Assembly (NCBI GenBank): GCA_005239925.1
Contig: SBBA01000183.1
Location: forward strand, 27-64,026
Direction: 5' to 3'
DNA: 64,000 nt
DNA from: Candidatus Troglogloeales bacterium
Lineage (GTDB): Bacteria > Nitrospirota > Nitrospiria > SBBL01 > SBBA01
The notes under the pieces are model-generated. The model saw only the letters and a program-made list of their open reading frames with translations, had not been told where the DNA came from and made no database searches. This document shows positions 4,704 through 52,773 of the stretch, one piece after another. Position 1 is the stretch's first letter; the number at the start of each line of letters is the position of its first letter. A program made the position numbers and the translations under genes.

Positions 4704-4928
4704 TTGAATATGAGTACAACGCTATCCATTAGGATTCCCGATCAATTGGCTGAACAACTTAACTCCGTTTCTAAGGAAACGGAGAGTCCACGCTCACTCA
4801 TTATTCAAAAGGCGCTTGAATCTTATATTGAAGACTATTCGGACAGTCAGATAGCCCTTGATCGCTTACACGACAAAACCGATCCAATTATCTCCGGAAA
4901 AGAACTAAAAAAGTTCCTTAAGCCGTGA
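4704..4928 (+). CDS. Ribbon-helix-helix (CopG/RelB-like) antitoxin, with no cognate toxin adjacent
   Basis: 74-aa ORF. 'LSIRIPDQLAEQLNSVSKETESPRSLIIQKALESYIE' is a classic RHH strand-helix-helix pattern. The RBS 'taggaga' lies upstream. Confidence 0.7.
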   Translation: MNMSTTLSIRIPDQLAEQLNSVSKETESPRSLIIQKALESYIEDYSDSQIALDRLHDKTDPIISGKELKKFLKP

Positions 4929-4947
4929 CCTTGGTAATTGATTCTCG

Positions 4948-4986
4948 TTGACAAGGGGTATAACGAAGTTTACACTTATAGTGTAA
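4948..4986 (+). promoter_or_regulatory. Candidate sigma70-type promoter plus operator palindrome upstream of vapB
   Basis: TTGACA lies at 4948-4953. The perfect 7-bp inverted repeat TTACACT-tat-AGTGTAA (4970-4986) overlaps the -10 position. The start codon is at 5003. Confidence 0.45.
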
Positions 4987-5002
4987 TCTATAAAAAAGGG
5001 AC

Positions 5003-5245
5003 ATGATGAATTCGATCAACTTGAAAGAAGCACGCAAGCATCTGGGTGACTTGGTCGCCGAGGTAGAGCGTGGCGCGTCAGTGGCCATCACCCGTCGCGG
5101 CAGGAAAGTAGCGCGTCTGGTACCAATGGAAAAAGAATCCCCTCAGTCTCTACCCGATCTGGCTTTGTTCAGGGCCTCAATCAAAGTAAAGGGAGGAAGC
5201 CTGACCGACGCGCTTTTGTCCATGCGCCATGAAGAACGGTTCTGA
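5003..5245 (+). CDS. vapB: Phd/YefM-type antitoxin (VapB-like)
   Basis: 80-aa ORF. The N-terminus 'INLKEARKHLGDLVAEVERGASVAITRRGRKVARLVP' matches the Phd/YefM pattern. It lies upstream of a PIN toxin. Confidence 0.8.
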   Translation: MMNSINLKEARKHLGDLVAEVERGASVAITRRGRKVARLVPMEKESPQSLPDLALFRASIKVKGGSLTDALLSMRHEERF

Positions 5246-5334
5246 TCCGCCGACGGGCGGAGGCGAACGGAGCCCTCCCGTTGGTCGGTCTGGGCCTACC
5301 GATGCCGTTACACGAAAGTTATCTACGCAAAAAA
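5246..5334 (+). repeat. Family D post-stop-codon element, copy D2, lying between vapB and vapC
   Basis: Starts at the base after TGA 5243-5245. It opens with the hairpin CCGCC-gacg-GGCGG and ends in 'ttatctacgcaaaaaa'. Confidence 0.65.
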
Positions 5335-5358
5335 TGGTGATGTCATCAAAAGAATCGA

Positions 5359-5781
5359 ATGTCCTTTCTTGACACCAGTGTTCTTACCCCTTACTACTGC
5401 CCGGAGAAACGAAGCACACGCGTACAGCGCCTGTTATCACGCATCGACCGCCCCGTCATTAGCCCACTTGTTGAAATTGAGTTTTATTGCGTGATGGCGC
5501 GCAAAGTTCGATCGGGCGAGATCAGCAAATCCACGGCCCAGCGCATCTTTACAGAGTTCAAACACCACGTAGCGGAGGGACGGTTTGATGTTGTCCCCAT
5601 TGAGGCGGGTGAATATACGTTTGCACGACGATGTATCGAAGAAATGTCCACCTCACTCCGCGCGGTAGACGCTCTTCATTTGGCCACTGCGTCGGCACAT
5701 AACATCGTTCTTGTCACGGCGGATCGCGACCTCGCCCAAGCGGCCAAGCGTTTTGGTGTCAAATATAAGTTTATCCCCTGA
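5359..5781 (+). CDS. vapC: PIN-domain ribonuclease toxin VapC
   Basis: 140-aa ORF. It has the N-terminal 'FLDTSVL' acidic motif and later 'DALHLATA' and 'VTADRDL', the typical PIN acidic residues. Confidence 0.85.
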   Translation: MSFLDTSVLTPYYCPEKRSTRVQRLLSRIDRPVISPLVEIEFYCVMARKVRSGEISKSTAQRIFTEFKHHVAEGRFDVVPIEAGEYTFARRCIEEMSTSLRAVDALHLATASAHNIVLVTADRDLAQAAKRFGVKYKFIP

Positions 5782-5917
5782 ATGAACGACCCACGGTAAG
5801 CCCGGCAAGCCAAGAGGATTTGTTGGATTTAAAAACAAACCCTTTCTTGGTATACTGCCCTTCAATGAAAAAGGAGATCAGCAACGCTTCGCGGTTGTAT
5901 TTGGTGTCACGTTCATC

Positions 5918-7162
5918 GTGACAATGCTTATCCTTGCCATCGCATTCCCCAACCCAACGCCATTCCAATACACCACCTTTCGAATCGTACTCAGTTTTGC
6001 TGCTGCAGCGGCAGCCGCAATGCTGCCTGGGTTTATTCAAATCGAGATATCAGACTGGCTAAGGGCAGGAGGAAGTCTGGCTGTGTTTGTTATTGTCTAT
6101 TTTTATAACCCGGCCTCTCTGGTCGCGCCAACAGCGCAAAACGCTTCTCGTCCTGCTGTCGCAGCAACATCGCATGAACCTAAAGTAGAAGCAAACCTAT
6201 CGGTACCAGCGTATATACCCAATATGGAAGGGACAGTAAATGAGGCGGTTCATCAGCTTTTTTTTGGGCCTTCTCAAATGCCTTTGCCAATCTCTACCGT
6301 GGTAATGGGTTCTGTTCATTATGAAGACACTCTTCTGGGCAGTCCGTTTGGAAAACGGTTGGAGATATTGATTGAGCACGAGCTTTCTCAAGTGCCGCAG
6401 ATCAAATTGATTCGTCGTAAGACAACCCGTGGCTTGAAAGAGTTGCAACAGGCGGATCGAAGTCGCGGACTCACAATTACGGACCGCCCCGTACCACCGA
6501 TGAGTTCGCAAGCGATGCAGGCGCAATTAGATGGCGCCCAAGCGGCGCTCGAGGCCCACTATAGGGTGCAGGGGGAGCAGATTCATTTAGACCTGACCTT
6601 GGTCAAAGCTGGGACGGGGGTAACACTTGCATCTGCCAGGGCAAGTATGGATAAAGCCCTTATCCCGCCTGAGCTTCAGTTGATGCCACCACGAACAGAC
6701 TTCGTTGAGCCTCCCAAAGCAGATGCGGGTAAAATACGCCTTGAACTGACCACGCATCAAGGGGACGGCGTGACCTTTGTCGAGAGGGAGAAAATAACGT
6801 TCTATGCCTCTACGGATCAGGGCGCCTATTTGCTTCTGCTCTATCAGGATGCTGCTGGTCAGCTTGTTCAAATTTACCCAAATGCCCGCACGGATAACGG
6901 CTTCCACGAGGCGGGCGAATATATCGCAATCCCAGGTAATAGCGCCAGCTTTGATTTCACAATCACGCCTCCCTTTGGGATTGAACAGGTCTGGGCATTT
7001 GCCGCAACTTCGGCCTTCCCGACTCTGAAGGGGGAGCGGCTTGATGATGGCCTAAAAGTTTTGCAAGAGGCTCTTTTGGATGTTATCGTGAAGCTTCGCG
7101 CGCATGGACAGAAGGTGAGCTACGGCGAGGCGAATGTGGTGATTACGACGGTAAAGGAGTAA
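5918..7162 (+). CDS. Membrane-anchored protein with a C-terminal DUF4384-like domain
   Basis: 414-aa ORF starting at GTG 5918 or ATG 5924. Hydrophobic N-terminal segments include an Ala7 run. The C-terminal 'GAYLLLLYQDAAGQLVQIYPN...GEYIAIPG' matches the DUF4384 pattern often found alongside caspase domains. Confidence 0.7.
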   Translation: MTMLILAIAFPNPTPFQYTTFRIVLSFAAAAAAAMLPGFIQIEISDWLRAGGSLAVFVIVYFYNPASLVAPTAQNASRPAVAATSHEPKVEANLSVPAYIPNMEGTVNEAVHQLFFGPSQMPLPISTVVMGSVHYEDTLLGSPFGKRLEILIEHELSQVPQIKLIRRKTTRGLKELQQADRSRGLTITDRPVPPMSSQAMQAQLDGAQAALEAHYRVQGEQIHLDLTLVKAGTGVTLASARASMDKALIPPELQLMPPRTDFVEPPKADAGKIRLELTTHQGDGVTFVEREKITFYASTDQGAYLLLLYQDAAGQLVQIYPNARTDNGFHEAGEYIAIPGNSASFDFTITPPFGIEQVWAFAATSAFPTLKGERLDDGLKVLQEALLDVIVKLRAHGQKVSYGEANVVITTVKE

Positions 7163-7183
7163 GTCGAAAAGGAAGTTATAGTC

Positions 7184-10075
7184 ATGCGACGTTCATACCT
7201 ACGGATTTTTACGCCCTTTGTATTGGTAGCCTATCTGGTATCGGGTTGCGCTACCGCTCGTCTGGCGCCGCTACCGAAGGCCACGCGATTGTTGATATCG
7301 GATGAGCCTCGCAAAGTCGGAATATGGCTCTCTCCCTCCCTTTCAGAGTGGTATATCTCAACGATATTAGTACGGGTACATGAGTTTTTTGGATGGGATG
7401 CTGAACTGGTACCACTTAAATCTAACCCCAAACAGGGGTCACATACAGCGCTGCGAGAACGCGGGTTTACCGATCTCATTATTATTGATGTTGACTACAA
7501 TCAACACGACAGAGGAAATGTGCTCACTAAAAACATTTCTGGAACTATTACAGTGCAGAATATATCCTTGGGTGAAGGTGTTTCCGAGTCGGTGGCTATG
7601 AAGTCGGAGTCGGGAAAGGCACAAAGAGGATACGAATTAAGGGCAAAAGATTTGGGAGAGTTTCTGGGGGAACTGATTGCTTTGCCTTTTGTGTGTCCTA
7701 TAGTAACATTTTTTGCTCCAATCTATTCCCTTGGTGGACTAAGAGATTCAGAGGGTAGAACGATGGCAGAGGAATGGCTTAGATCTTGTCTTCTTCTCGA
7801 AGCCACCCCCCCAAATTATAACGCAGTGGAACCTAAAATTGATCATATGCTCCTGACCCATTTAGATGGATCAGTGAAGCAAGCGATCTCAAAGTATGCA
7901 GTTTTTGAAGATAAAAGTCGGCAACCGCCCACATTGGTAGCGGCTGTTACTTTCAATGATCGCAATGGCGTTCTACCCAACAATATCCTGGATGCAGGGG
8001 AACGGGCTAATCTGGTGATCAAGATAGAAAACAGGGGAAATGGGCCTGCGTATGTTGTGACCCCCGTTGTAACAGGAGAAACAAAGGGATTCACCATGAC
8101 TGCCCCTGAACCTTTACAGAGGATTCCCCCTAATGAGAGTCGTGAAGTCAGAATCCCGGTATTGGGAGGGTTCAATCTTTTGGATGGAAGAGCAAAAATG
8201 CTGATCGAGGTAAAGGAAAAGCGGGAGTATGATGCCAGGAAGGTGCCACTGTCATTTCCAACCGCTCATTTGGAGAAGCCGAATTTAAGCATCGAACCCC
8301 CAAGGATTCAGGACGGAACGAAAGGCATGGCCTCCGGAAATGACAACGGAAAGATAGAAAATGGGGAGACGGTGGAATTACAGGTCTTTGTGGAAAACAC
8401 CGGAGTCGGAGAAGCTTATGGTGCCCGGCTTTCGCTTTTGGAAATATCCCCCTCTGGCGTGGAGATTGTCCAGAAGGAGAGTGATATTGGGCTAATCGGT
8501 ATTAACGAAACGGCGAAAGCGAATGTGGTTATTCGGATACCTCGGAACGTGCAGCTTTCTGGTTTGGAAGCAAAGTTCCGTGTGGAAGAAATCGAACGCA
8601 AGGCTGCACAGACCGAGAAAAGGGTTGCCTTCACAGGCGCAACATTGAAGCCGGAATTGTCGACCCGGGTAGAATGGAATGATAATAATGGAATCTTGGA
8701 GACCGGCAAGACCATCAAAGGGATATTAACGGTGCACAACGGGGGCAGCCTTGCCGCGGAAAACGTAGAAGTGGCCCTCCGTTTAACCGGCCGTGGCGTG
8801 CAACTTACACCACAGCGGTTTCAGGTGGGAAGGTTGGAGCCAAACCAAACGTCGGCACCGCTTTATGCCACATTGACCATATCGCGCACTTTTGAAGCCT
8901 CAGAAATTGTCATTAATACAACCGTACAGCAACAGGATTTCCCAAAAGTTGAAGAGCATCAGACTCATGCCGTGACCCTGCGGCGGCCTAATTTAGTGGT
9001 GATGCAGAGGCTGACCAATCAAGTAATAGGGAATGAAAAGACAATTGGGAGTATTCGACAAGGAGAAAATACAAAAATAGAAATCAGAGTACGCAACCAG
9101 GGTAACATGGATGCGGATGGCGTGACGATCTCGGTTTTAAGTAAACGGCCAGAAGTCCAACTTATTGGAAGAGAAAAAACATTCAAGATCGGCAGGATTC
9201 CAGCGGGCCAGAACAGCGAACCGATTCAGATACCATTGACCATCCTTCGGAGTGCACCGGTGGAGGTGGCAGAGATTGTCGTGGAAGTGTCCCAGGACGA
9301 TTTTCCTGATTCAGAACAGAAAGGCGTGTTGATGGTTCAAGCGGAAAGCGCCGAAGAGATCAAGATCGTGGGCGAAGCAACAAAGGAACCCAAGCCTGTT
9401 GTGCAGCCTTCCATTGCCACTAATCCAATCGTTATCGTCAGCCCCCAACCGTCAGAAGGTATTGTTCAGGACACATTTAACCTGATCTGGGATGAAGTCG
9501 GGGATGTTGCTTCCGTGGAGGTTAGAGTGAATGGGGATCCAATCGATCCACAACCAATACGAGGCATTACCCTTACTGAAAAGGCTGAAAAACAGGGTCC
9601 CCGGCATCGTAAGACAATTCCATTAAAGCTTGGAAAAAACACGATTGTGCTCATTGCGTATGACCTTGCTAATAAGCGTTGGGAGGATGAGATTGTAGTG
9701 ACGCGATTGGCCGAGCGTGGAGAAATTTGGGCGGCCGTGATTGGAATATCATCATACAATCATGTTCCTTCCCTTGAGTATGCCAGAAAGGATGCGGATG
9801 CATTCCTGGCCTATCTGAAAGAATACATGGACGTACCCTCAGACCATATCCGTACCCTATATGATAGTGATGCAACGGTTCAGAACATGAAATCCACTTT
9901 GGGCACATGGCTAAGGGAAAAGACCGGCAAGAACGATACTGTATTTATTTACTATGCGGGTCACGGCGCACCCGAGGCAAACCCGGAAAGCCTGGATGGA
10001 GATGGTCTTGAGAAATATCTCCTCCCAACAGAGGCGAATCCTGCCGATCTCTTTAGCACAGCATTCCCCATGTAG
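7184..10075 (+). CDS. Lipoprotein with repeated CARDB-like beta-sandwich modules and the His half of a caspase-like (peptidase C14) domain, ended by an in-frame TAG
   Basis: 963-aa ORF with the lipobox 'LVSGC'. At least four repeats of the type 'G(E/K)x..L.V.V.N.G...A' are present. The C-terminal 'WAAVIGISSYN...VFIYYAGHGAPE' is the caspase His motif. Confidence 0.8.
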   Translation: MRRSYLRIFTPFVLVAYLVSGCATARLAPLPKATRLLISDEPRKVGIWLSPSLSEWYISTILVRVHEFFGWDAELVPLKSNPKQGSHTALRERGFTDLIIIDVDYNQHDRGNVLTKNISGTITVQNISLGEGVSESVAMKSESGKAQRGYELRAKDLGEFLGELIALPFVCPIVTFFAPIYSLGGLRDSEGRTMAEEWLRSCLLLEATPPNYNAVEPKIDHMLLTHLDGSVKQAISKYAVFEDKSRQPPTLVAAVTFNDRNGVLPNNILDAGERANLVIKIENRGNGPAYVVTPVVTGETKGFTMTAPEPLQRIPPNESREVRIPVLGGFNLLDGRAKMLIEVKEKREYDARKVPLSFPTAHLEKPNLSIEPPRIQDGTKGMASGNDNGKIENGETVELQVFVENTGVGEAYGARLSLLEISPSGVEIVQKESDIGLIGINETAKANVVIRIPRNVQLSGLEAKFRVEEIERKAAQTEKRVAFTGATLKPELSTRVEWNDNNGILETGKTIKGILTVHNGGSLAAENVEVALRLTGRGVQLTPQRFQVGRLEPNQTSAPLYATLTISRTFEASEIVINTTVQQQDFPKVEEHQTHAVTLRRPNLVVMQRLTNQVIGNEKTIGSIRQGENTKIEIRVRNQGNMDADGVTISVLSKRPEVQLIGREKTFKIGRIPAGQNSEPIQIPLTILRSAPVEVAEIVVEVSQDDFPDSEQKGVLMVQAESAEEIKIVGEATKEPKPVVQPSIATNPIVIVSPQPSEGIVQDTFNLIWDEVGDVASVEVRVNGDPIDPQPIRGITLTEKAEKQGPRHRKTIPLKLGKNTIVLIAYDLANKRWEDEIVVTRLAERGEIWAAVIGISSYNHVPSLEYARKDADAFLAYLKEYMDVPSDHIRTLYDSDATVQNMKSTLGTWLREKTGKNDTVFIYYAGHGAPEANPESLDGDGLEKYLLPTEANPADLFSTAFPM

Positions 10076-10078
10076 GAT

Positions 10079-10501
10079 GTGGATAAGATTTTGGGCCGTA
10101 TCAATGCCGATCGGATTGTCTTTATTGTGGACTCCTGTTTTTCCGGGGCCAGTGGGGGTAGAACACTCCTGGCGTCCAACAAGACCAGGGCAACCTTGTC
10201 TGATCAGTTTTTGGAGCGGCTATCTCGCGGGAAAGGGCGGGTGATTTTATCAGCCTCCCGTGCCAATGAGTTAAGTATTGAGGGAGCCCGATTCGGAGGT
10301 GGTCATGGCGTGTTTACCTATTACTTGCTTGAAGGGCTTAGAGGAAAAGCCGATTACAGCCGAGATGGACTGGTCGATATAGACGAGGTCTATCGGTATC
10401 TATCTGAAAACGTCCCCACGGCAACGGGCCAGCGTCAGACGCCAGTGAAGAAAGGAGAAGTGGAAGGAACGCTCATTGTGGGGAAGGTGAGAAACAAGTA
10501 A
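10079..10501 (+). CDS. Cys half of the same caspase-like (C14) domain, in the same frame as 7184..10075
   Basis: The 140-aa ORF is in frame with the upstream ORF across TAG 10073-10075. 'RIVFIVDSCFSGASGG' is the caspase catalytic Cys motif. It has no convincing RBS of its own. Confidence 0.7.
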   Translation: MDKILGRINADRIVFIVDSCFSGASGGRTLLASNKTRATLSDQFLERLSRGKGRVILSASRANELSIEGARFGGGHGVFTYYLLEGLRGKADYSRDGLVDIDEVYRYLSENVPTATGQRQTPVKKGEVEGTLIVGKVRNK

Positions 10502-10510
10502 AGGGCGATT

Positions 10511-11122
10511 CTAAAATCCAAATTTTTTACGAACCATTAGCTTCTTAATTTTTTCGTCGCCAAGCCAAACCTTGGCATTATTTTCAAGGTCAATTAACTC
10601 AAGGGTAACCTGGAAATATTTATACCGTTCATTCTCAACCTGTTCCTCAAAGGAAGAAATCACCCCCTTGAGCATATAATCGGCCGCAATCTCCTTGCCC
10701 AACCCCTTCGCCGTGGTCTCACTAGAGTGAATCTGTTGTTGGGCACGCTCCTCGCGAATCTCCTGCCGTTCTTCGGAGGAGGCGACAAAAAGAACCCGAC
10801 CCGAATTGGTTAGCTCCCGCTCCAGGTCCTTTGTAAAGGTTTGGGTGGGAATATGGTCATGACTCTTGTTGACAACGGTGCCAACGATTACCATCGGTTC
10901 TTTTCCTGTCTTCTTCTGAAAGGTATCGATCCATCGGCCCCGAAGCACGTCATCCACCATCTTTCGCGCAACCAGTTGCGAATCGGTGTCATTCCATCGA
11001 TCCGAGAGGTCAACGGTCTGTTCGGTCTCCAATCGAGACACCTTTGTGGTCGCGCAGCTAGATACCACGGCAACGACCAAACCCGATATGATTAAATGCC
11101 ACACTCTGTTTTGCATTGTCAT
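10511..11122 (-). CDS. LpoB-like (COG3417-type) outer-membrane lipoprotein
   Basis: 203-aa ORF with the lipobox 'VVSSC'. It contains 'VDLSDRWNDTDSQLVARKM', 'MVIVGTVVNKS' and 'ADYMLKGVISS...YKYFQVTLELIDLENNAKVW', the typical LpoB-family layout. Confidence 0.65.
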   Translation of the reverse strand: MTMQNRVWHLIISGLVVAVVSSCATTKVSRLETEQTVDLSDRWNDTDSQLVARKMVDDVLRGRWIDTFQKKTGKEPMVIVGTVVNKSHDHIPTQTFTKDLERELTNSGRVLFVASSEERQEIREERAQQQIHSSETTAKGLGKEIAADYMLKGVISSFEEQVENERYKYFQVTLELIDLENNAKVWLGDEKIKKLMVRKKFGF

Positions 11123-11700
11123 TCCTCCTTTGGGCTTCCCAACTGAGGTTGAGAGGCCATCTCTTCGCTTTGCACTTTAAATTGGTCAAACGATTTTTCC
11201 ACGTTCCTTCTGATAAACCCTTTCAACTCGGGACTTAACTCGCGTGCGGCAAGAACCTCTTTTTTAAATTGATTTAACGTTAGTTCTGCCAGTGAATAAA
11301 AGGTGCCATCTTTTGGGTCGGTCCATGATTCAGTATGATCAATATTAAAGAGAATGCTGGTGGTTGCATAGGTCTTTAATATCCTTTCGGCATTTTGCGT
11401 CTCGTTAAATTCCTTTAAATCTGTTTCCGAGAGGGTCTGGGTGTAATCCTTTAATAGCGAATCAATAAAGGCCTCCAGTATGCGGGTAAGCTCGGACTGG
11501 GCAATCTTTTCCGCCGTCATCTTTAATAGTGCTTCGCTCTGTCCAGCAGATATCTTCCCTACCCCATAAAATACCTGTTTGTTTAAGAAAGCGCTTCTGT
11601 TTTTTTGAACCCAATCTGGTCGTGCATGCCCTATGCAGCCAGCCAATGTCAGGCCAATTGCGCCGAAAACGATCCCTTTTAATATTGTTTTTATGGCCAC
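11119..11700 (-). CDS. LPP20/FlgP-like lipoprotein
   Basis: The ORF is open to 11790, but that start would overlap the upstream gene. GTG at 11700 gives 'VAIKTILKGIVFGAIGLTLAGC' with a lipobox. 'FYGVGKISAG...AEKIAQSELTRILE' resembles LPP20. There is a 4-bp overlap with the downstream LpoB-like gene. Confidence 0.55.
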   Translation of the reverse strand: MAIKTILKGIVFGAIGLTLAGCIGHARPDWVQKNRSAFLNKQVFYGVGKISAGQSEALLKMTAEKIAQSELTRILEAFIDSLLKDYTQTLSETDLKEFNETQNAERILKTYATTSILFNIDHTESWTDPKDGTFYSLAELTLNQFKKEVLAARELSPELKGFIRRNVEKSFDQFKVQSEEMASQPQLGSPKEE

Positions 11701-11713
11701 CTCGATTATACCC

Positions 11714-12532
11714 TTAAAAAGGTGTTGAAGTGATGAGTACGTTAACAAATTTCTTTCCCGTTTTTTCTTCTGTTGCATATTCACGGGCAAGCATACGTAC
11801 CCTCTGATCGAGGCTACGATAGAAATTTTCGATCTGTTCTCTTGGAATATTGAGATAATGATTGCGAAGATAGGTGTTTTGATCCTTGCGAACTACTTTC
11901 TCCAAAAGCCCCTTTGTAAATATACTACAGAATTCCATCGAAAGAGAGCGCCGTTCCTCGGGAGCGACAGGCACATAATGATGCGATATAGATCGAACTT
12001 TTTCTTTTTGGAGTTCAATCAGCCCCTGTTTTTGCAAAATATCAACCACCGTATCAACTAAAACCAGCGGCTGCGCCTTTCCCTTTCCAATCTCCTGCAC
12101 CGCCTCCTGCAGATCGCTTCTCCATTTCTTTTGGGTTACCCAACTGTCGTCGTTTGGGAGGGCAGTAATAGCGCGACTCACCAAGAAGGCAATTTCAGCC
12201 TCTTCAATACCCTCTCCTTTCTCCTTGTTCACCTTGATAATTCGACGAAACTCACGCGAAAAGGCATGAAGGATACGATCCTGCCACAATAACACCAGAA
12301 GCTCATTAACATCCTGTCCTCGTAATTGGGCTAGCCTGTGGACTAGGGCCTCGGGCGGGAACCGCTTCCCTTTTTCGATATAACTCAACATGACCGGGTC
12401 AACTGTGCCATCCATAGCCTCCGTGGCAAAACGCTGAAGGGTAAATCCACGTCCCATGAGTACCCGCGTCTCGTAAAAAATATCTCTTAACTTTTTAAAA
12501 GTGGTCATCTTAGGCGTTATCATTATGGTCAT
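11714..12532 (-). CDS. HTH transcriptional regulator, paralog 1 (architecture resembles TIGR02147/DUF4423)
   Basis: 272-aa ORF with an XRE-like HTH 'FTLQRFATEAMDGTVDPVMLSYIEKGKRF'. It aligns end to end with 13505..14326. Confidence 0.7.
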   Translation of the reverse strand: MTIMITPKMTTFKKLRDIFYETRVLMGRGFTLQRFATEAMDGTVDPVMLSYIEKGKRFPPEALVHRLAQLRGQDVNELLVLLWQDRILHAFSREFRRIIKVNKEKGEGIEEAEIAFLVSRAITALPNDDSWVTQKKWRSDLQEAVQEIGKGKAQPLVLVDTVVDILQKQGLIELQKEKVRSISHHYVPVAPEERRSLSMEFCSIFTKGLLEKVVRKDQNTYLRNHYLNIPREQIENFYRSLDQRVRMLAREYATEEKTGKKFVNVLITSTPF

Positions 12533-12871
12533 CCAAAAATTACTAGGCCTCCTTATTTGATCTATCTACCCCAATGGCTAGGGTTTGTCTATTATACAAA
12601 CACTATATGTTATGGTCAATAGGATAGAGCAAAAAAGACTTAAAATTATTTGCAATATTCCATGAACGCAACACTTACTATAAAGATAACACACCTACGA
12701 TCTTTTATGTTAATGGTGGTTTGTCAGATATTTGGCATTAATATTAAATTTGATCTCTATTGGACGGCCCTAGGCAAAATAGATAGTCTTCATACCCGAG
12801 ACAGGTAGACTAACAGCAAAAAAAGATGGATTTTTTACGTGAAACAGTACAGAAACAAGCCAATTTCTGTC

Positions 12872-13489
12872 TCAAGGTTGAGGGGTAACAGTCACATCTG
12901 TGACAACAAAAGCCACCCTTGCTTTAAAGCTACTGAGGAGTCCATCGGATGTTGCTGGATTCGTGCCCGATGGATAGGCCAGTACGGCAAGATCAACCCG
13001 ACTAGATGTGACACTAGATACCCCCCTTATCGGAACAACGATTTCGGCCTTAGGAAGGTCAGATGACGGCACAGCAACAAAAGGAGACGGGACTATTTCC
13101 CAGTGAGTGGAGAACGGGGCCTGGTAACGAACAGCCATAAAATATTGAGTGTCAGACTGAAAACCCTTTATATCCTGAATACCCACCTTTAGACCACATG
13201 GGCCTAAATTTGTTTCCAGGACGCAAGAAACAGAGGGCTCTGACTGAGCCGTAATAATCATGGAGAACTCATTATTTTTACCAATACTATCACCGGTTTT
13301 GTTGCCTGAACAAAAGAGTGTCCCATTTGATTCTTCGCAAACCGATTCCGCATTTACCCTTGTAATCAGTTGCTGCTCTTGATCAAAACGGGCATCAAAC
13401 CCGCTGGAGCCACTGCCACCACAACCCACTAAGGCCAAAAGGCCAGATATAAAGATAAAAAATCGTGAAATCTGTTTTCTCGTCTTCAT
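12872..13489 (-). CDS. Putative lipoprotein of unknown function
   Basis: 205-aa ORF with the signal and lipobox 'FIFISGLLALVGCGGSGSSG'. It lies immediately downstream of regulator paralog 2. Confidence 0.65.
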   Translation of the reverse strand: MKTRKQISRFFIFISGLLALVGCGGSGSSGFDARFDQEQQLITRVNAESVCEESNGTLFCSGNKTGDSIGKNNEFSMIITAQSEPSVSCVLETNLGPCGLKVGIQDIKGFQSDTQYFMAVRYQAPFSTHWEIVPSPFVAVPSSDLPKAEIVVPIRGVSSVTSSRVDLAVLAYPSGTNPATSDGLLSSFKARVAFVVTDVTVTPQP

Positions 13490-13504
13490 AAAATGACTCT
13501 CCTT

Positions 13505-14326
13505 TTAAAGTGGGGTTGAGGTAATCAGCACATTAAGAAACTTCTTACCTGTTCTTTCTTCGGTCGCATACTCTCCCACAATATCGCGCACTTCTTGATC
13601 CAGCCGACGATAGAAATCTTCAATGCGATCCGGAGAAATTTGCAGGTAGTGGTTCCTTACGTAGGACTCCTTATCCTGTCGCACCATTTTATCAAGAAGC
13701 CCTTTCGCAAAAATACCACAGAACTCTACAGCCAGAGAGCGCTTTTCCTCGGAATTTCCAGGAACATAGTGATTTTCCAGACGCCTCACTTTTTCTTTAT
13801 TGCGCTCGATAAGTCTGTGTTCAAGTAAGATATTGGCCACCGTCTTAACCAGGCTCTGAGGTCGTTTTTGGCCTAATTCCTCTAATGCCGTCTGTAAATC
13901 CTGCCGCCAGCGTACGGCCGTTACCCAGCTGCCATCATCCGGCAAGGCCGCAATGGCACGACTCACCATGAAGGCTACTTCCGCATCGGAGACACCATCC
14001 ACCCTGCCCTTATTGTCTCCCTTAATAACTCGACGCAGCTCACGAGAGAAGGCATGAATCATACGATCTTGCCACAAAAGAACCAGCAGGTCCTGGGGAT
14101 CCTGTTCTCGAACACGAGCCAGCTTATAAACCAGGGACTCCGTGGCAAACCGCTTCCCCTTCTCAATATAGCTAAGCATAACCGGATCAACGGTGCCACC
14201 TAAAGCCTCTGTAGCAAATTTGTTGAGGGTATACCCTCGACCCATTAAAACCCGTGTTTCATAAAAAATATCTTTTAATCTTTTAAATGTAGATGTACTT
14301 GGAGCCATAATCGCCGCCTTCCCCAA
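13505..14326 (-). CDS. HTH transcriptional regulator, paralog 2
   Basis: 273-aa ORF. It shares long identical runs with 11714..12532: 'DIFYETRVLMGRG', 'GTVDPVMLSYIEKGKRF', 'LLVLLWQDR' and 'NVLITSTP'. Confidence 0.7.
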   Translation of the reverse strand: MGKAAIMAPSTSTFKRLKDIFYETRVLMGRGYTLNKFATEALGGTVDPVMLSYIEKGKRFATESLVYKLARVREQDPQDLLVLLWQDRMIHAFSRELRRVIKGDNKGRVDGVSDAEVAFMVSRAIAALPDDGSWVTAVRWRQDLQTALEELGQKRPQSLVKTVANILLEHRLIERNKEKVRRLENHYVPGNSEEKRSLAVEFCGIFAKGLLDKMVRQDKESYVRNHYLQISPDRIEDFYRRLDQEVRDIVGEYATEERTGKKFLNVLITSTPL

Positions 14327-14621
14327 AAGCTATGAATCTGCGTATCTATTTTTCAAGGGGCCTTCCCCCGACGAACAAGATAACACCCTTCATAACAACA
14401 CCGCCATACTCAAAATGGGGGGATTACTAAAAAATACCCCAACCTATATGGTCAGTTCTTAACAGCCCCCCATGCTAAGGGTATAACATAAATTAAAATA
14501 TGTCAACTCAACCCATTTCGGTAGATAGCCTGAGCCTGTTTATAGACCGGATTGTGAACACTATCTCTTTTAGCGCCATATTCGAGCTTTTATACAATTA
14601 GACAACGTAGGGTATAAAAAG

Positions 14622-14649
14622 TTTAATCTATTTTACAAAATAGATTAAA
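14622..14649. promoter_or_regulatory. Perfect 13-bp-arm palindrome in the AT-rich region upstream of regulator paralog 2
   Basis: TTTAATCTATTTT-ac-AAAATAGATTAAA. Related half-sites (TTTGATCTAT at 12556, TTTGATCTCTAT at 12749, AAAATAGATAG at 12776) lie upstream of paralog 1. Confidence 0.4.
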
Positions 14650-14886
14650 AAGTTTTTTCAACAAGTCTTCTACATCTTCCGAATCTTCCGAAAAGTCAAA
14701 AACGGATATTCAATTGTTTCAGCTTACCAAAAAGGATAACGCAAGCTTGAAAAGTAGTGCACAAATAGGCACCCTTAATTGCTGGATTGTACAGGAGCAA
14801 TAAAAAGGCTTCTTTCTTATAGGGATCTAGGCTTATGTCGGACAAACCGAGAGACTACCTTGAAAATAAGACTGGAAAGAGCATAA

Positions 14887-15028
14887 GGGCACCTCTAAAA
14901 ACCTACTGCGCGACCCAATTGCTGTGTTGCGCGGTGCTCGAAATCCTCATGTATACTGCATAGATTGCGGTTTCTCCGCTCCGTGCGCCTTGCACTTGGG
15001 CCGCTCGCGACGGTTTTTAGAGATGCCC
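14887..15028 (+). mobile_element. Family A MITE-like element, copy A2 (142-bp subtype)
   Basis: TIRs are GGGCACCTCTAAAAACC and GGTTTTTAGAGATGCCC. Flanking direct repeat is ATAA/ATAA. No ORF is present. Confidence 0.8.
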
Positions 15029-15082: not shown

Positions 15083-18000
15083 TTATGGAATGCTAGTAGA
15101 TATTTCGCATAAAACCCCAGTATCTGTACCACTGCCACCTGAACATAGATCAATATGTAATCCGCCATTTAATACGTCATTTCCTGATCCACCAAGCAAT
15201 CTATCGTCTCCAGCGTCTCCATTCAGAGTATCGTTGCCGTTCTGACCATGCAGGTCGTCTTTTCCATCTCCTCCGGATAAGAGGTCGTTCCCACTTCGAC
15301 CATAGAGCTTATCATCGCCCACACCACCATCTATAACATCGTCTCCCTCCTGACCATGGAGGGCGTCTCTTCCATTCCCACCTGACAAGACGTCATTTCC
15401 ATACTTACCATAAAGTCGGTCGTTCCCGGCGCCACCCTCCATGATATCATCTCCCTCATTACCATGTAGTATGTCGTCTCCACCTTCACCTTTTAGAATA
15501 TCATTCCCATAGCCGCCATAAATCTTATCTTTACCTAAACCACCTACCAGGCAATCACTTCCACCACGCCCCCTGATATCATCATTACCCCCTAAGCCCC
15601 GAATCAGGTCGTTCCCGGATGTGCCACCTAGGGTATCATTAAACGCCGTACCAACAATCACGTTATCAATCCGCAGCACGCCACATTCTAGCGCAAACAA
15701 CAGAAATTCTCCAGAACCAATAGAAAGACTCACTCCCCCTGACTCCACAATAACAGTTCCACCGGATACCAAAGACGAAATGGTTTCATCCTGGTGTATG
15801 GTTAATGCTAACACAGCGCCAGGTCCCAGCGTTGTGGTATAGGCCTTGCCATTAATATCAACGCCTATCACTGCCCCAGTTGGCCCGGCAAGGGAGAAGG
15901 CAAGATCGCCTTCCAGTGGAGTAACCGCCGTCATAGAGGCGCCGGTATCCAACGCAACCGCCGTTGTGATCCCACCCGAAGTTAGCGTGATATTGACCGG
16001 CCCTGCAATACTGGATATAACCGCTGACCCACAGGACACTGAAGTCATTATTGAATTCACTAATGACGCCGGAAAAACAAGTTCAGCCGGAGGGATACAG
16101 GCCAATGTAACCGTGGCCGGAGAGAGGCCCGACTCAACGGTGATCGTTATCCTGCCACCTACCCACTCCAGTTTAATAATCCGACCGGCCCGATTCGTAA
16201 GGGTTCCCATCGTTAGCCCATCCGAGAAGTCATTAGAGAAAGTGATTGGCTCTAAGTCTATGTCATCAACAATCCCATCGTTATCGTCATCCGGGTCAAT
16301 ACAATCGGCCATCTCGTCCCCGTCGGTGTTGGTAAATCCTTCATCCACGCCCTCGTTCAGGTCATTGTCAACGCCATCACAAATCTCCGGCGTGGAAAGG
16401 GGATTCAACGGATTAGACCCTGCGGCCAACTCGATGTCGTCGGAGAACGTGTCGCCATCGTCATCCGGGTCAACACAATTGGCCATCGTATCGCCATCGG
16501 TGTCGGTAAATCCTTCATCCACGCCCTCGTTCAGGTCATTGTCAATTCCATCGCAAGACTCCGGCGTGGAGGCAGCATTGAGCGGATCAGCTCCCTCGGC
16601 AATCTCCACAGCGTCGAGGAACCCGTCACCATCATCATCGTCATCACAAATATCGCCTGAACTATCTCCATCAGTATTAGTTTGATTCGTGTTGGCTGTT
16701 ATGAGGCAGTTGTCGGTTGAGTCGGGAATGCCATCTTGATCGGTGTCGATAATAATATCAAAAAGCGTCTGCTGGCATGTCTGCAAGAGTGTAATCTCCA
16801 TAGTTGGATCGCATACGGCCTTATTTCCGGTCCAGACAACATAGGCATTCCCGTTAAGAACGGCCACGCCATTATAATCACCAATACGAAGCAGGCCATT
16901 TCCTTTTTCAGGGGCGCCCAAGTCCGGATCAAAGGGGGCATGGGCATCATTCACCTGCACCTCGGGAAGAAAGGTCAAGCCACCATCTACACTGCTTCTT
17001 GAAAACAAATCCAACAAGAAGTGATCATTGCTATTCACAGCCCCACGCCTGGTATCATACCAGGTTACCGTTAAGAATCCTGATCGGGGATCAATACCGG
17101 CGGCAGGAAAAAACTGAATCGTTTCATCGGGGCTAGTGTCCACCCGTAGCGGGGCATCCCAGTGCTGCCCAAAATCGGTGGAACGGGCAATATAAACATT
17201 CATATCATCAAAATCAGGACCGTGACTTATATCGGTTGGATCATCCGCAGCAACCACGTAAATATTGCCCGGGCGGGCCGCGTCGGGCAACACCCATGCC
17301 TGAGCGGAGGGCTGCGTCCATGTGATCGTCTTATTCAGACGCCTGTCACTGAAGTTGAAAGTAATATCCGCATTGCCTGCCGTAAAAGCGGTTGTCGGCG
17401 GGAGATAATTGTTACCTCCATCCGTTGACCGTCGAACCATCACCTGACCAGTTTCTCCATCAGGATTACCGCCGTTAAACCTGGGCTGATTATGGTAGGC
17501 GACATAAACGTCACCGTTGGACGCCACGGCGTTATGTGCCGGCCAATTAAATTCCAAGTCATCCTCAGACAGAATCAGCCCAGCAGACCAGTTCAACCCC
17601 TGATCATCAGAGAAGGAGGTGATGACAACGGTCCTGGGGCCACTAAATTTTGTCCAAACAACATAGAGGCGGTCTCTATATGGACTCGTAGAAAAGCTAT
17701 CGGCGGCAAGCCAATCTTTATCGTTAATCGCTCCATCGTCGGCCGCAAATCCAGCGCCAGACGTCACATTCACCGGATAGCCGGGAAGGATCTCCCCCGT
17801 CATCGGATTGATCTGCGAAATAAAGATATCTCTTCTGTTCGTGTTACCTGATCTCTTTGCCAAGTACGTCCAAAACAAACGCCCCTGGCTGTCATAGGCC
17901 AGAGACGTATCGCCTCCAATAACATGAGGGTCATAATCACTCGACAGAGCCGGAGGCACAATGGCCCTTGTTGGGGCGCTAAACGTGGCCCCCCCGTCGG

Positions 18001-18211
18001 CTGAAACACGTACTTCAGCTGATGGGGAGACGGCAATACGATTTGGATTATTCGGATCAATAGCAATCGCGGGTTGACTCAGCCCGCCTAATGGGAGGTC
18101 AACGGACTGGGCAACCGCAGTACCAATAAGCGTAGGGAGCACCTGTAGCGTCGCAGCAAAAAGAGCCCCAACACAAAACGCAACTCTTTTTGAAAAAGAG
18201 ACCTTTTTCAT
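15083..18211 (-). CDS. Secreted multidomain protein: BNR/sialidase-like propeller, thrombospondin type-3-like Ca-binding repeats and a C-terminal RTX nonapeptide block
   Basis: 1042-aa ORF with an N-terminal signal ending '...GTAVAQS'. Asp-box motifs are 'SADGGATF', 'SDDQGLNW', 'STDGGNNY', 'STDFGQHW' and 'SVDGGLTF'. 'DTDQDGIPDSTDNC' and 'DGDxxxDxxDxDDD' repeats are present. There are more than 12 'GGxGxDxL' RTX repeats near the C-terminus. Confidence 0.85.
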   Translation of the reverse strand: MKKVSFSKRVAFCVGALFAATLQVLPTLIGTAVAQSVDLPLGGLSQPAIAIDPNNPNRIAVSPSAEVRVSADGGATFSAPTRAIVPPALSSDYDPHVIGGDTSLAYDSQGRLFWTYLAKRSGNTNRRDIFISQINPMTGEILPGYPVNVTSGAGFAADDGAINDKDWLAADSFSTSPYRDRLYVVWTKFSGPRTVVITSFSDDQGLNWSAGLILSEDDLEFNWPAHNAVASNGDVYVAYHNQPRFNGGNPDGETGQVMVRRSTDGGNNYLPPTTAFTAGNADITFNFSDRRLNKTITWTQPSAQAWVLPDAARPGNIYVVAADDPTDISHGPDFDDMNVYIARSTDFGQHWDAPLRVDTSPDETIQFFPAAGIDPRSGFLTVTWYDTRRGAVNSNDHFLLDLFSRSSVDGGLTFLPEVQVNDAHAPFDPDLGAPEKGNGLLRIGDYNGVAVLNGNAYVVWTGNKAVCDPTMEITLLQTCQQTLFDIIIDTDQDGIPDSTDNCLITANTNQTNTDGDSSGDICDDDDDGDGFLDAVEIAEGADPLNAASTPESCDGIDNDLNEGVDEGFTDTDGDTMANCVDPDDDGDTFSDDIELAAGSNPLNPLSTPEICDGVDNDLNEGVDEGFTNTDGDEMADCIDPDDDNDGIVDDIDLEPITFSNDFSDGLTMGTLTNRAGRIIKLEWVGGRITITVESGLSPATVTLACIPPAELVFPASLVNSIMTSVSCGSAVISSIAGPVNITLTSGGITTAVALDTGASMTAVTPLEGDLAFSLAGPTGAVIGVDINGKAYTTTLGPGAVLALTIHQDETISSLVSGGTVIVESGGVSLSIGSGEFLLFALECGVLRIDNVIVGTAFNDTLGGTSGNDLIRGLGGNDDIRGRGGSDCLVGGLGKDKIYGGYGNDILKGEGGDDILHGNEGDDIMEGGAGNDRLYGKYGNDVLSGGNGRDALHGQEGDDVIDGGVGDDKLYGRSGNDLLSGGDGKDDLHGQNGNDTLNGDAGDDRLLGGSGNDVLNGGLHIDLCSGGSGTDTGVLCEISTSIP
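16262..16612 (-). repeat. Tandem 174-bp (58-codon) duplication inside the RTX/TSP3 gene
   Basis: An identical 41-mer 'ggtaaatccttcatccacgccctcgttcaggtcattgtcaa' occurs at 16331-16371 and 16505-16545. At protein level the units are 'STPESCDGIDNDLNEGVDEGFTDTDGD' and 'STPEICDGVDNDLNEGVDEGFTNTDGD'. Confidence 0.8.
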
Positions 18212-38862: not shown

Positions 38863-40620
38863 GTGGGAGAAGTAGGGGTGAGGCTGATTCTTTTTTCGGT
38901 TTTGTTAACGCTAGCCCTCTGGGTAGGCTATGTTAGGTGGGATAATACTTCTGGTGTAGTTGTAGGGAAAAAGGGTGGGTTTGTGGAAAGCAGTGATGAG
39001 ATGGCAAAAGTAATGATCCCGGCTATGGCGATTTCAGATAAAATAGTAGTCACGGTAGAGGGGATTTCCGATGTGCCCCCTGAGACGGTTGGAAATGCCT
39101 ATGAATTTAGCCCTGATGGAACCCGTTTTGCTCGTCCTGCAACCATCACGATTGCGTATGACGAAACAGCGCTTCCTGATGAGGTAGATGAGGCTGATCT
39201 TACGTTAGGGTATATGGTGGGTGGTCGTTGGAAAGCGGTTACCGATGCAACCGTGGATACGGTTGCTAATACCGTTACTGGCCGTTCCGTTCATTTTAGC
39301 CGTTTTGGTGTGTTTCGGGCTGGCTCGCGTACGGTAGGCATCGAGGGTGGGGTCGTTGAAAGTGAGGATGGAAAGGCTAACATTGTTGTTCAGTCCGATG
39401 CCGTTTTGGCCGATACTGCTTTTACCATAGATCCTATTTCTGATACTCCAGAGGGGACTATTGGGTTGGCTTACCGACTCGGACCTGAGGGGTCTCATCT
39501 GGCCCGGCCTGCTGTCCTTTCGGTTGTCTATGACCCGTCTGTCATTCCGTTGGGGGTTGACGAGGCCGATCTGGCCTTAGGAACCTTAGTGGATAATCAA
39601 TGGCAGGTTCTGACAGGGAGTGTAGTAAATGTCATTACAAATACTGTGCGTGGAAGCGTTGTACGGTGGGCCCCTTTTAATGCCTACAGTGTTCTGGCCC
39701 GCCCGTTGCCAACCATTGAAAATCCCTCCTTTGAGTCGGGCGTTTCTGCTGTAAAAAACTTGGTTCCAGGACGGAGTTATACCATTACCGGTTTATTGAA
39801 AGGGGTGGGTCGTTGTTGTACGGGTGATATTACTTCATTTGGCGTGGCCGTGGATGGGCGAATTATTTTTGAGCGGAGTCGGCCGCTCAAGGATCAATTT
39901 GTCCCGTTCACGACCACGTTTCCTGCAACTTCTAGTAATCACACCGTATCGTTTTTTGCTGAGCGAAAGAGTTTGGATGTTGGCTATGCCGTTGATGATA
40001 TTGCCATTGCTCCACAGAGAGGCTTTAATCTGATGATAAAAGGTCTTTCCACAGGAAGGGGTGTTGTTACATCAAATCCTCCCGGGATTGATTGCAGTCG
40101 GGACTGCTCCGCCTCATTTGCTTCGGGAACGAGCGTCACTCTAGTTGCAAAAGCAGAACGAGGATTTGTTTTTTCGGGTTGGACAGGAGAGGAATGCACA
40201 GGAATGTGGGTCTGTACGCTGACGATGGACTCCGCTAAGGCAGTCAAGGCGGTTTTTTCTCATCCGTCGTCCAATGCAGCGCTGTCTAGCCTTATGACGG
40301 TCTCTCCAAAAAGTTATGGGGAGGGGCGGCTTGAGCCAGACTTTAGTCCCGAGCTAAAGGAATATACAATTTCAAGACTTGAACCTGGCTTTATTGGCTT
40401 TATGGCCTCTGCAGAGAGCCCTGATGCTGCAGTTGTTGTTGGGGGAAGTGAGGTAGCTTCTGGTCAGTGGTCACGCGTTTATTTTGATGGAACAGATGTC
40501 ACCATTCCTGTTGTTGTAACCGCCCAGGATGGAAAGACAATGAGGGGGTATACGGTACGGTTATGTCGGTGGTATTGTATAGATTCTAAAGGTAGTTTAG
40601 GTAAAAACCCCCAACTTTAG
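38863..40620 (+). CDS. Secreted or anchored protein with an InlB-B-repeat-like module and a cadherin-like beta-sandwich C-terminal domain
   Basis: 585-aa ORF (GTG 38863 or GTG 38878) with the N-terminal anchor 'LILFSVLLTLALWVG'. Two similar about 140-aa N-terminal repeats ('...ITIAYDETALPDEVDEADLTLGYMVGGRWKAV' and '...LSVVYDPSVIPLGVDEADLALGTLVDNQWQVL') are present. It also contains 'VVTSNPPGIDCSRDCSASF..GTSVTLVAKAERGFVFSGW'. Confidence 0.7.
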   Translation: MGEVGVRLILFSVLLTLALWVGYVRWDNTSGVVVGKKGGFVESSDEMAKVMIPAMAISDKIVVTVEGISDVPPETVGNAYEFSPDGTRFARPATITIAYDETALPDEVDEADLTLGYMVGGRWKAVTDATVDTVANTVTGRSVHFSRFGVFRAGSRTVGIEGGVVESEDGKANIVVQSDAVLADTAFTIDPISDTPEGTIGLAYRLGPEGSHLARPAVLSVVYDPSVIPLGVDEADLALGTLVDNQWQVLTGSVVNVITNTVRGSVVRWAPFNAYSVLARPLPTIENPSFESGVSAVKNLVPGRSYTITGLLKGVGRCCTGDITSFGVAVDGRIIFERSRPLKDQFVPFTTTFPATSSNHTVSFFAERKSLDVGYAVDDIAIAPQRGFNLMIKGLSTGRGVVTSNPPGIDCSRDCSASFASGTSVTLVAKAERGFVFSGWTGEECTGMWVCTLTMDSAKAVKAVFSHPSSNAALSSLMTVSPKSYGEGRLEPDFSPELKEYTISRLEPGFIGFMASAESPDAAVVVGGSEVASGQWSRVYFDGTDVTIPVVVTAQDGKTMRGYTVRLCRWYCIDSKGSLGKNPQL

Positions 40621-40647
40621 TACTAGGGGAGAAAGAGGAGGTTCAAC

Positions 40648-40899
40648 ATGGAATTATTTTTAATTGGAAGTAATGGTGAGTTAGCCGGTATTTCAAAGAG
40701 GAAGAAGACGTTGGTCAAGGGGCCGTCCAGGACAGGTAAGAGCCGGCTCCCTTTTGAAAAATCTAAGTTATCGCCTTCCTCCTTACGTGAAGAAATTCGC
40801 TTAATGCTCTATCTTTCTTCTCGTCTTGTGAATGAGGGTAAGGCATTAAAATCGCAGGATGTGGGTGTGACGAGTTCGCTCTCGTCACAATGCGCCTAA
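40648..40899 (+). CDS. Small basic hypothetical protein
   Basis: 83-aa ORF with a strong RBS GAGGAGG 7 nt upstream. I recognise no similarity. Confidence 0.4.
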   Translation: MELFLIGSNGELAGISKRKKTLVKGPSRTGKSRLPFEKSKLSPSSLREEIRLMLYLSSRLVNEGKALKSQDVGVTSSLSSQCA

Positions 40900-52739: not shown

Positions 52740-52773
52740 TGATTCATCCCTTGCCTGGGCGTTAAAGAGAAAT

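Follow-up and report, generated by a model that had tools for sequence, protein, structure and literature searches.

Introduction

Prokaryotic caspase homologues, the orthocaspases and bacterial metacaspases of MEROPS C14B represented by MaOC1 of Microcystis and GSU0716 of Geobacter (3bij), share with the gene analysed here the PF00656 domain and the GHG and DxCxSG motifs, and they also have in common with it a predicted caspase-hemoglobinase fold and the fusion of accessory domains to the protease domain (PMC6426788). Unlike these homologues, our gene is broken between the catalytic His and Cys, and its architecture (a lipoprotein signal, an Ig stalk and a C-terminal protease) and its setting beside DUF4384 and CsgG-like genes are uncharacterised. 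Caspase-like proteins without a working dyad have been described as pseudo-orthocaspases, but these form full-length, conserved lineages in which the catalytic His/Cys are replaced, for example by Tyr/Ser (PMC6426788), whereas the gene reported here encodes both residues and has lost the dyad by truncation, a loss that is confined to one genome. The best structural match, the paracaspase MALT1, likewise combines caspase-like and Ig-type domains (Foldseek E 9e-13, TM ~0.67), but at 17-18% identity this eukaryotic, cytosolic protein, with death and Ig domains in another order, offers a likeness of fold only.

The lesion itself has a counterpart in the 'pseudo-pseudogenes' of Salmonella Typhi and Paratyphi A, where a single in-frame UAG also interrupts an otherwise intact gene with uninterrupted orthologues (PMC9122581). 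Proteogenomics detected low-level translation through the in-frame UAG of such Salmonella pseudogenes, and the UAGs that are read through have flanks enriched for C (PMC9122581). Trace near-cognate readthrough would be possible in principle at our locus too, although its stop is flanked by G on both sides. Here we ask which reading best accounts for this interrupted caspase-like gene.

Results

Gene layout and domain identity

Translation of positions 7184..10501 in the window (the whole stretch of DNA analysed, 64,000 nucleotides) gives 1105 sense codons and a terminal TAA, with codon 964 as the only internal stop. This confirms the preliminary description, which had reported two ORFs in the same frame (7184..10075 and 10079..10501) with TAG 10073-10075 as their sole interruption, and had placed the His and Cys halves of a caspase-like domain on opposite sides of that stop, where we find His927 and Cys985 in the expected motifs (Table 1). 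The residues flanking the stop read '...VFIYYAGHGAPE...STAFPM-stop-DVDKILGRINADRIVFIVDSCFSGASGG...'. The upstream ORF encodes a signal peptide and a weakly conserved N-terminal stretch, followed by Ig-like repeats (44-59% identity among orthologues) and the leading half of the C14 domain with the catalytic His, while gene callers give the downstream half as a separate ORF of 140 aa (from GTG 10079) or 136 aa (from TTG 10091). The putative signal peptide was assigned from the known lipobox pattern, and the lipobox Cys is retained in orthologues ('LVSYLASC', 'LAVYITSC' and 'LLASC'). Judged by its sequence, the region is a single gene for a ~1105-aa, putatively exported lipoprotein with a C-terminal caspase-like protease.

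Table 1. Features of the interrupted caspase-like gene and its neighbours, with positions in the window.
Feature	Position	Strand	Evidence or remark
DUF4384-domain gene, conserved neighbour of the caspase family	5918..7162	+	Pfam PF14326, E 4e-18
Shine-Dalgarno-like AGGAAG	7170..7175	+	8 nt 5' of the ATG of the caspase-like gene; read from the sequence
Putative lipoprotein-type signal peptide (MRRSYLRIFTPFVLVAYLVSG followed by C)	7184..7249	+	Translation; lipobox Cys22 at 7247-7249
Upstream ORF of 963 aa, closed by the premature TAG	7184..10075	+	
CARDB/DUF11/NPCBM_assoc-like Ig-fold repeats, ~aa 250-840	7931..9703	+	Weak Pfam matches
Peptidase_C14 domain across the stop, aa 849-1088 in the conceptual full-length protein	9728..10447	+	Pfam, AlphaFold2, Foldseek
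Differences between Logan contig and window: 9915 G/A (Arg to Lys) and 9928 C/T (synonymous)	9915..9928	+	
Catalytic His927 codon CAC, motif YAGHG	9962..9964	+	
Premature TAG at codon 964, with G as the next base	10073..10075	+	Also in Logan contig SRR6943130_58768
Downstream C14 half, presumably now untranslated or trace-translated only	10076..10501	+	TAA at 10499-10501
Catalytic Cys985 codon TGT, motif DSCFSG	10136..10138	+	
LpoB/CsgG-like lipoprotein gene, convergent	10511..11122	-	Pfam LpoB, E 5.5e-39

When the stop is translated as X, the profile Pfam Peptidase_C14 (PF00656) gives a single match that covers positions 3 to 222 of its 233 (E 3e-18; 66.8 bits, cutoff 21.4), and since this match runs across the stop, the two ORFs are halves of one domain and no chance juxtaposition. 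The generic 'caspase' model of PADLOC matches as well (E 1.7e-18), the His927 and Cys985 motifs align with 'YSGHG' and 'DSCHSG' of yeast and Candida metacaspase-1, and the catalytic His and Cys are each invariant in 124 family members. An AlphaFold2 model of the conceptual read-through domain (pLDDT 89.5, pTM 0.88) retrieved MALT1 paracaspase, GSU0716 (3bij) and metacaspases as Foldseek matches (E 1e-12 to 1e-10 for the top ones, up to 1e-9 overall), so that model and search together predict a caspase-hemoglobinase alpha/beta fold. The stop corresponds to domain residue 133 of this model, after strand 88-94 and His96 and before helix 135-141 and strand 146-152 with Cys154; the dyad is encoded across the TAG and no single polypeptide carries both of its residues. 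On the evidence of profile, dyad motifs and predicted fold, the encoded domain is a C14 peptidase of the orthocaspase/metacaspase type.

The stop codon in two assemblies and in relatives

The contig is metagenome-assembled, and a sequencing error had been proposed as one origin of the TAG; in that case the true genome would have a sense codon at 10073-10075. However, the NCBI 64,061-nt contig and Logan contig SRR6943130_58768, from an assembly of run SRR6943130 (for which a literature look-up returned no papers), give the identical TAG and differ at two positions only in 9594 bp, neither of them at the stop (Table 1). These sole differences between the assemblies lie 145-158 nt 5' of the stop in the same gene and point to some population heterogeneity there, which could be held in favour of an artefact. 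The Logan assembly represents the same community, and perhaps the same reads, as the MAG, so it excludes an assembly slip while not counting as a second independent sample. Moreover, the TAG reflects a base substitution outside any repeat and no homopolymer indel. No other real gene in the 64-kb window is split within one frame, and the remainder of the window contains intact housekeeping genes, indicating an isolated lesion and not a poor assembly. We therefore consider an artefact of sequencing or assembly very unlikely.

Comparison with orthologous loci, which the preliminary description had suggested as a check, showed that the gene is uninterrupted in all relatives found and has a sense codon in place of the TAG. 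None of the six closest homologues (five orthologues and one paralogue, 39-58% identity) has a stop at this column: the orthologues, of 989-1241 aa, carry K, K, K, G and S, and the paralogue, in a Nitrospiraceae MAG, carries K. The homologous codons are AAG, AAG and AAA for Lys, and GGA, and where the window gene reads 'AFPM-stop-DV', its nearest local match (P0080) has 'AFPMKDV'. AAG and TAG are one transversion (A-to-T) apart, and the direct ancestor codon was most likely AAG (Lys), as judged from these distant orthologues. The wider family has a sense residue at the column in 124 of 124 members (R in 51, S in 23, N in 16, G in 12, E in 7, K in 6, D in 5, and others), none of which is truncated between His and Cys; the column accommodates at least 11 different residues across the family.

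The sequence on both sides of the stop had been described earlier as looking like an intact caspase fold, with no frameshift and no decay, and for the downstream half this withstood closer inspection. Its identity to orthologues (71-77%) compares with 65-78% among the intact orthologues themselves, and of the positions with at least 90% conservation in the family, 43 of 44 are retained there, against 34 of 37 in the part before the stop. No second lesion was found in it. Such an undecayed downstream half argues that the mutation is recent, although with available relatives no more than 58% identical its age can be dated only coarsely. As a separate observation, absence of a second lesion downstream is also what continued readthrough translation would predict.

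Searches with the full-length protein retrieved only the Logan twin and orthologues of at most 58% identity, a degenerate DNA pattern for 'AFPMxDVDKILGR' had no match in JGI metagenomes, and an alignment-based scan of metagenomes for the locus gave, among the matches listed, only relatives at 24-34% identity. A scan of GTDB species representatives returned the Nitrospiraceae MAG CAZTAM01 only, the adjacent DUF4384 protein found nothing above 56% identity over most of its length, and an exact look-up of the 963-aa product in the contig index gave no record. For ribBA and ilvB, a related JGI strain does exist, with identities of 90% and above. None of these searches found an intact allele of the same lineage that would point to a polymorphism.

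Recoding, split-enzyme and readthrough readings

A TAG read as sense via pyrrolysine or a dedicated suppressor tRNA could draw on two points: orthologues have Lys at this site and pyrrolysine derives from that amino acid, at best a coincidence, and the genome was examined over 64 kb only. Against such recoding, TAG terminates 16 of the 51 likely genes in the window (~31%), including the genes ending at 1079, 1893, 2695 and 30536, all with full-length Pfam domains before the stop. These figures uphold the earlier statements that TAG is an ordinary terminator for neighbouring genes and that a reassigned codon is unlikely. The 64-kb window holds no tRNA gene, and no pyl-like gene among its Pfam annotations; a link between pyrrolysine and Nitrospirota was not found in the papers searched, and the stop column is variable and without special function. 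Terminator usage and the lack of tRNA or pyl genes in the window led us to reject codon reassignment or pyrrolysine insertion, whose probability we put close to nil.

Working caspases naturally have a two-chain form, a start codon lies 3 nt past the stop, and gene calling yields a separate ORF there. One could accordingly imagine re-initiation at GTG 10079 or TTG 10091 and a Cys fragment of 136-140 aa that joins the 963-aa His fragment to give an active enzyme. Yet the break falls between His and Cys within the p20 core, where there is no p20/p10-type linker, and no relative is split. The AGGA that overlaps the stop is poorly spaced, at 1 nt from the GTG and 13 nt from the TTG, whereas the bona fide start has its AGGAAG at 8 nt. 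Since the lipoprotein export signal is on the N-terminal product only, the two pieces would probably reside in different compartments, and a C-terminal fragment made on its own would be unable to pair with its partner. Fold position, poor Shine-Dalgarno spacing and export signal together made us discard a split enzyme, which we find scarcely credible.

The preliminary description had also offered a leaky stop that acts as a 'safety catch' on a potentially dangerous protease. In such programmed readthrough, as in a 'pseudo-pseudogene', near-cognate Gln, Tyr or Lys tRNAs would occasionally decode the TAG, and a small dose of full-length, active protease would be functional or even selected. Consistent with this are the fully intact downstream half, a column tolerant of at least 11 residues, where the identity of an inserted amino acid should not matter, and the precedent of Salmonella pseudogenes with low-level translation across an in-frame UAG (PMC9122581). 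The catch nonetheless found no support. The stop is unconserved in all ~130 relatives, and the orthologous exported proteases manage without such a catch. Its context, CCCATGTAGGATGTG, with G at -1 and G at +4, differs from the C enrichment of the Salmonella cases, and four further genes in the window terminate normally at TAGG. A 121-nt segment that covers the stop and the sequence behind it folds worse than shuffled sequences (z = +1.8; 196 of 200 shuffles equal or surpass it) and thus offers no stimulatory RNA structure, an Rfam scan of the whole window found no element, and consensus matches to an internal promoter or terminator near the stop did not exceed those in shuffles. Basal readthrough would in any case be a generic by-product and no mechanism, and we hold leaky or programmed readthrough to be improbable, if less so than the other alternatives.

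Genomic neighbourhood

The caspase-like gene begins 22 nt past the stop of the upstream DUF4384 gene, a gap short enough to suggest that the two are probably co-transcribed. DUF4384 genes lie near the orthologues too, CsgG/FlgO-like genes flank the orthologues as well, and the family is common in Nitrospirota and Desulfobacterota. A role in anti-phage defence was considered and rejected, as PADLOC returned its generic caspase model only and nothing for the neighbours.

Discussion

We regard it as likely that the locus is a young nonsense pseudogene or loss-of-function allele and no regulatory device. A recent nonsense mutation had been among the origins first proposed, and it is well supported by the AAG and AAA Lys codons of orthologues and by the undecayed downstream half. 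A single A-to-T change would have converted AAG, the codon of a non-conserved surface Lys, to TAG; in the model this position opens the helix that lies between the strand with the His and the strand with the Cys. RF1 would then terminate translation at the TAG and release a 963-aa product without the catalytic Cys and without about half of the domain core (141 codons past the stop, including the Cys-bearing strand). On the modelled fold such a product cannot be an active protease, because it lacks the Cys and roughly half of the core, and it is probably unable to fold its last domain. A recent date for the mutation would explain why the 141 downstream codons still look intact.

A variant in which the TAG is maintained, with near-cognate readthrough at a residue-tolerant surface site supplying a trickle of full-length exported protease alongside a mostly protease-less Ig-repeat lipoprotein, seems to us highly unlikely; if true, it would make the gene a dosage-limiting bacterial 'pseudo-pseudogene' of a C14 protease.

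As a young nonsense pseudogene, the locus is a clean case of a very recent lesion in an uncultured Nitrospirota, and its importance as such is small. Annotators should be aware that the 963-aa and 140-aa 'proteins' deposited with the contig come from a single broken gene, of which each represents one half. The intact family deserves more interest than the stop itself: it is a widespread and uncharacterised group whose members have an Ig-repeat stalk, anchored as a lipoprotein, in front of a C-terminal caspase-like domain, with DUF4384 and CsgG/LpoB-like lipoprotein genes as neighbours. The loss of one copy hints that this family may be dispensable or costly under some conditions.

A single TAG divides one Peptidase C14 domain

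Conceptual translation of 7184..10501 yielded 1105 sense codons, one internal stop (TAG 10073-10075) and a terminal TAA (10499-10501), confirming that two ORFs in the same frame are separated by a lone TAG. With X entered at the stop, the Pfam Peptidase_C14 profile matched residues 849-1088 without a break (model positions 3-222 of 233; 66.8 bits, E 3e-18, gathering score 21.4), so the two ORFs are halves of one domain and not chance neighbours. The His927 and Cys985 motifs align to 'YSGHG' and 'DSCHSG' of solved metacaspase-1 structures (7qp0, 4f6o), and the TAG thus parts the catalytic His from the Cys of one domain, as the preliminary description had proposed. Scanning the 64 kb for open segments in one frame with a single stop between them turned up no second split of a real gene.

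Features of the window discussed in the text
Feature	Position	Strand	Remark
NUBPL/Mrp-like P-loop ATPase; two-PCP_red-domain protein (protochlorophyllide reductase 57 kD C-terminal); haem-oxygenase-like/TENA-PQQC family protein	162-2695
Ribbon-helix-helix-like ORF, 74 aa	4704-4928
Phd/YefM-like ORF, 80 aa	5003-5245
PIN-domain (VapC-like) gene	5359-5781		Pfam E 1e-19
Upstream ORF, 963 aa, ATG start	7184..10075	+	translation
Catalytic His927, CAC, motif 'YAGHG'	9962-9964	+	upstream of TAG
Downstream ORF, 140 aa, GTG start	10079..10501	+	same frame as 7184..10075
Catalytic Cys985, TGT, motif 'DSCFSG'	10136-10138	+	downstream of TAG
1042-aa protein, RTX calcium-binding nonapeptide repeats and bacterial thrombospondin type-3 repeats	15083-18211	-
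821-aa protein without Pfam match, in chemotaxis-type cluster	54479-56944

The ATG is preceded by a Shine-Dalgarno sequence (AGGAAG, 8-nt spacer), and the N-terminus (MRRSYLRIFTPFVLVAYLVSG, then Cys) starts with positive charge, followed by a hydrophobic core and then by a lipobox Cys that the orthologues keep; by the established lipobox rule the protein is predicted to be an exported lipoprotein. The middle 600 residues gave weak Pfam matches to CARDB/DUF11/NPCBM_assoc Ig-fold families. The last 274 residues were modelled with AlphaFold2 (125-sequence alignment; pLDDT 89.5, pTM 0.88), and a Foldseek search of the PDB with this model retrieved MALT1 paracaspase, Geobacter GSU0716 (3bij) and plant, yeast and trypanosome metacaspases (E 1e-12 to 1e-9). 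By profile, dyad motifs and predicted fold, the intact family belongs to Peptidase C14, whose prokaryotic caspase homologues have been reviewed (PMC6426788) and are divided into orthocaspases and metacaspases by a p10 criterion; unlike a functional member, the gene in this genome does not place both catalytic residues on one polypeptide. In the model the stop falls at domain residue 133, after predicted strand 88-94 and His96 and just ahead of predicted helix 135-141 and strand 146-152, the latter running into Cys154, so that the 963-aa product would lack the nucleophile and roughly half of the fold core. That the two ORFs encode a split, two-chain enzyme is unlikely: the break would fall within the p20 core, an AGGA that overlaps the stop has spacers of 1 nt to GTG 10079 and 13 nt to TTG 10091, and the C-terminal piece would have no export signal, whereas its partner is predicted to be exported.

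The TAG is probably genuine, in a genome where TAG is an ordinary terminator

We compared the NCBI contig (64,061 nt) with a Logan per-run contig of SRR6943130 (9594 bp) that matches 5319..14912 and reads identically (CCCATGTAGGATGTG) at the stop. This run also contains the ribBA gene of this genome and therefore represents the same community, independently assembled, rather than a second independent sample. The Logan contig rules out an assembler slip as the source of the TAG, and base-calling error is very unlikely, so the sequencing error first considered is disfavoured. The assemblies differ only at 9915 (G/A, Arg to Lys) and 9928 (C/T, synonymous), 13 nt apart in the caspase domain and ~150 nt upstream of the TAG, which hints at strain microdiversity, or else a small patch of recombination, in precisely this gene. 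With the surrounding genes intact (ilvBNC, psd, ribBA, ribH, nusB, purB and the chemotaxis cluster), the TAG is an isolated lesion.

TAG is a stop in this organism. It ends 16 of the 51 likely genes in the window (TAA 19, TGA 16), in line with the earlier view that reassignment is unlikely, and such heavy use contradicts pyrrolysine insertion or suppression at this codon. No tRNA gene or Rfam match was found within the 64 kb, nor any pyl-like gene among its annotated genes. Three consecutive genes at 162-2695 each stop at TAG. The premature-stop context, TAGG, also terminates genes at 1079, 30536, 42822 and 51991, all of which have complete Pfam domains right to their ends.

The stop is probably a young change of a sense codon

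The protein search returned five full-length orthologues (46-55% overall identity, 989-1241 aa), all uninterrupted, and one more distant relative. A GTDB scan put the nearest genomes among uncultured Nitrospiraceae and uncovered a paralogue in the same Nitrospiraceae MAG; the labels on further family members are Nitrospirota, Nitrospiraceae, Desulfobacterales and Thermodesulfobacteriota. Where the window has its TAG, the orthologues, distant relative and paralogue carry K, K, K, G, S and K; the codons at four loci are AAG, AAG, AAA and GGA, and P0080, the fragment with the highest local similarity, has 'AFPMKDV' in place of AFPM, stop, DV. A profile search with the C14 domain recovered 1562 proteins with E values no higher than 1e-10; in the 124 of these that were aligned, the column is a sense residue throughout (R51, S23, N16, G12, E7, K6, D5; A, V, W and Y 1 each), follows an invariant Met and is, judged from variability alone, probably surface-exposed. 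None of the 124 ends or begins between His and Cys. The simplest history would be a single AAG-to-TAG transversion at a variable, polar position.

Neither side of the stop shows decay, as originally noted. Over the downstream 138 aa the window is 71-77% identical to five intact homologues, which are 65-78% identical to each other, and is thus no outlier. Of the family positions conserved at 90% or more, it keeps 43/44 downstream (the sole exception, F to L, is common to 10 other members) and 34/37 upstream. In simulated neutral substitution, the probability that 423 nt acquire no new stop fell from 0.43 at 5% divergence to 0.19 at 10% and 0.05 at 20%; read alongside the preserved family positions, these values indicate a mutation probably younger than a few per cent neutral divergence.

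Continued translation of the region would leave the same undecayed pattern, and this is the sole point in favour of readthrough. A selected leaky stop that acts as a 'safety catch' on the protease is not supported: the stop is unique to this genome, its context is that of ordinary gene ends, no stimulatory RNA structure was detected (z = +1.8 for the 121 nt surrounding and following the stop, which fold less well than shuffled sequences), and orthologous exported proteases exist without any catch. Whereas UAGs read through in Salmonella 'pseudo-pseudogenes' are C-enriched at flanking -1 and +4 (PMC9122581), this TAG has G at both. Any stop is expected to allow some trace, unprogrammed readthrough; functional low-level readthrough is very improbable here.

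Genomic neighbourhood and consequence of the lesion

The orthologous loci (L003, L004, L005) and window 5918-11122 share DUF4384 protein gene(s) upstream and CsgG/FlgO- or LpoB-like lipoprotein genes nearby, with a shorter second C14 gene (477-502 aa) in the relatives. This recurrence suggests an uncharacterised envelope-associated module in Nitrospirota. The DUF4384 protein of the window (5918-7162; 359-414 aa) matches its ~650-aa relatives only over their residues 320-653 (56% identity), and its N-terminus differs from theirs and is hydrophobic; a short form of 421 aa occurs elsewhere. The window protein may represent a distinct architecture or an N-terminal truncation adjoining a toxin-antitoxin insertion, toxin-antitoxin-like genes (4704-5781) lying directly upstream of the DUF4384-caspase pair. 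For MaOC1, a cyanobacterial orthocaspase, cleavage of a neighbouring antitoxin has been reported (PMC7935541), but the window caspase is predicted to be exported and the orthologous loci lack this PIN gene.

Elsewhere, the product of 15083-18211 is probably a secreted calcium-binding protein, and 45501-56944 holds a chemotaxis-type cluster (DUF4388 protein, CheY-like receiver, CheA, three CheW, two MCPs). Upstream of ribBA (41620-42822) there is a 1-kb stretch (40620-41620) that lacks a convincing ORF; neither an FMN riboswitch nor another Rfam family reached gathering score anywhere in the window.

Of the readings first offered, the recent nonsense mutation holds, with sense codons in relatives and an undecayed downstream half, while the leaky stop is unsupported. 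The caspase-like gene is best explained as a young pseudogene or loss-of-function allele, its lesion being an ordinary nonsense pseudogene of an already known kind: RF1 would terminate at TAG 10073-10075, the cell would export a 963-aa lipoprotein whose final domain is half a caspase fold without the Cys, and protease function would be lost.
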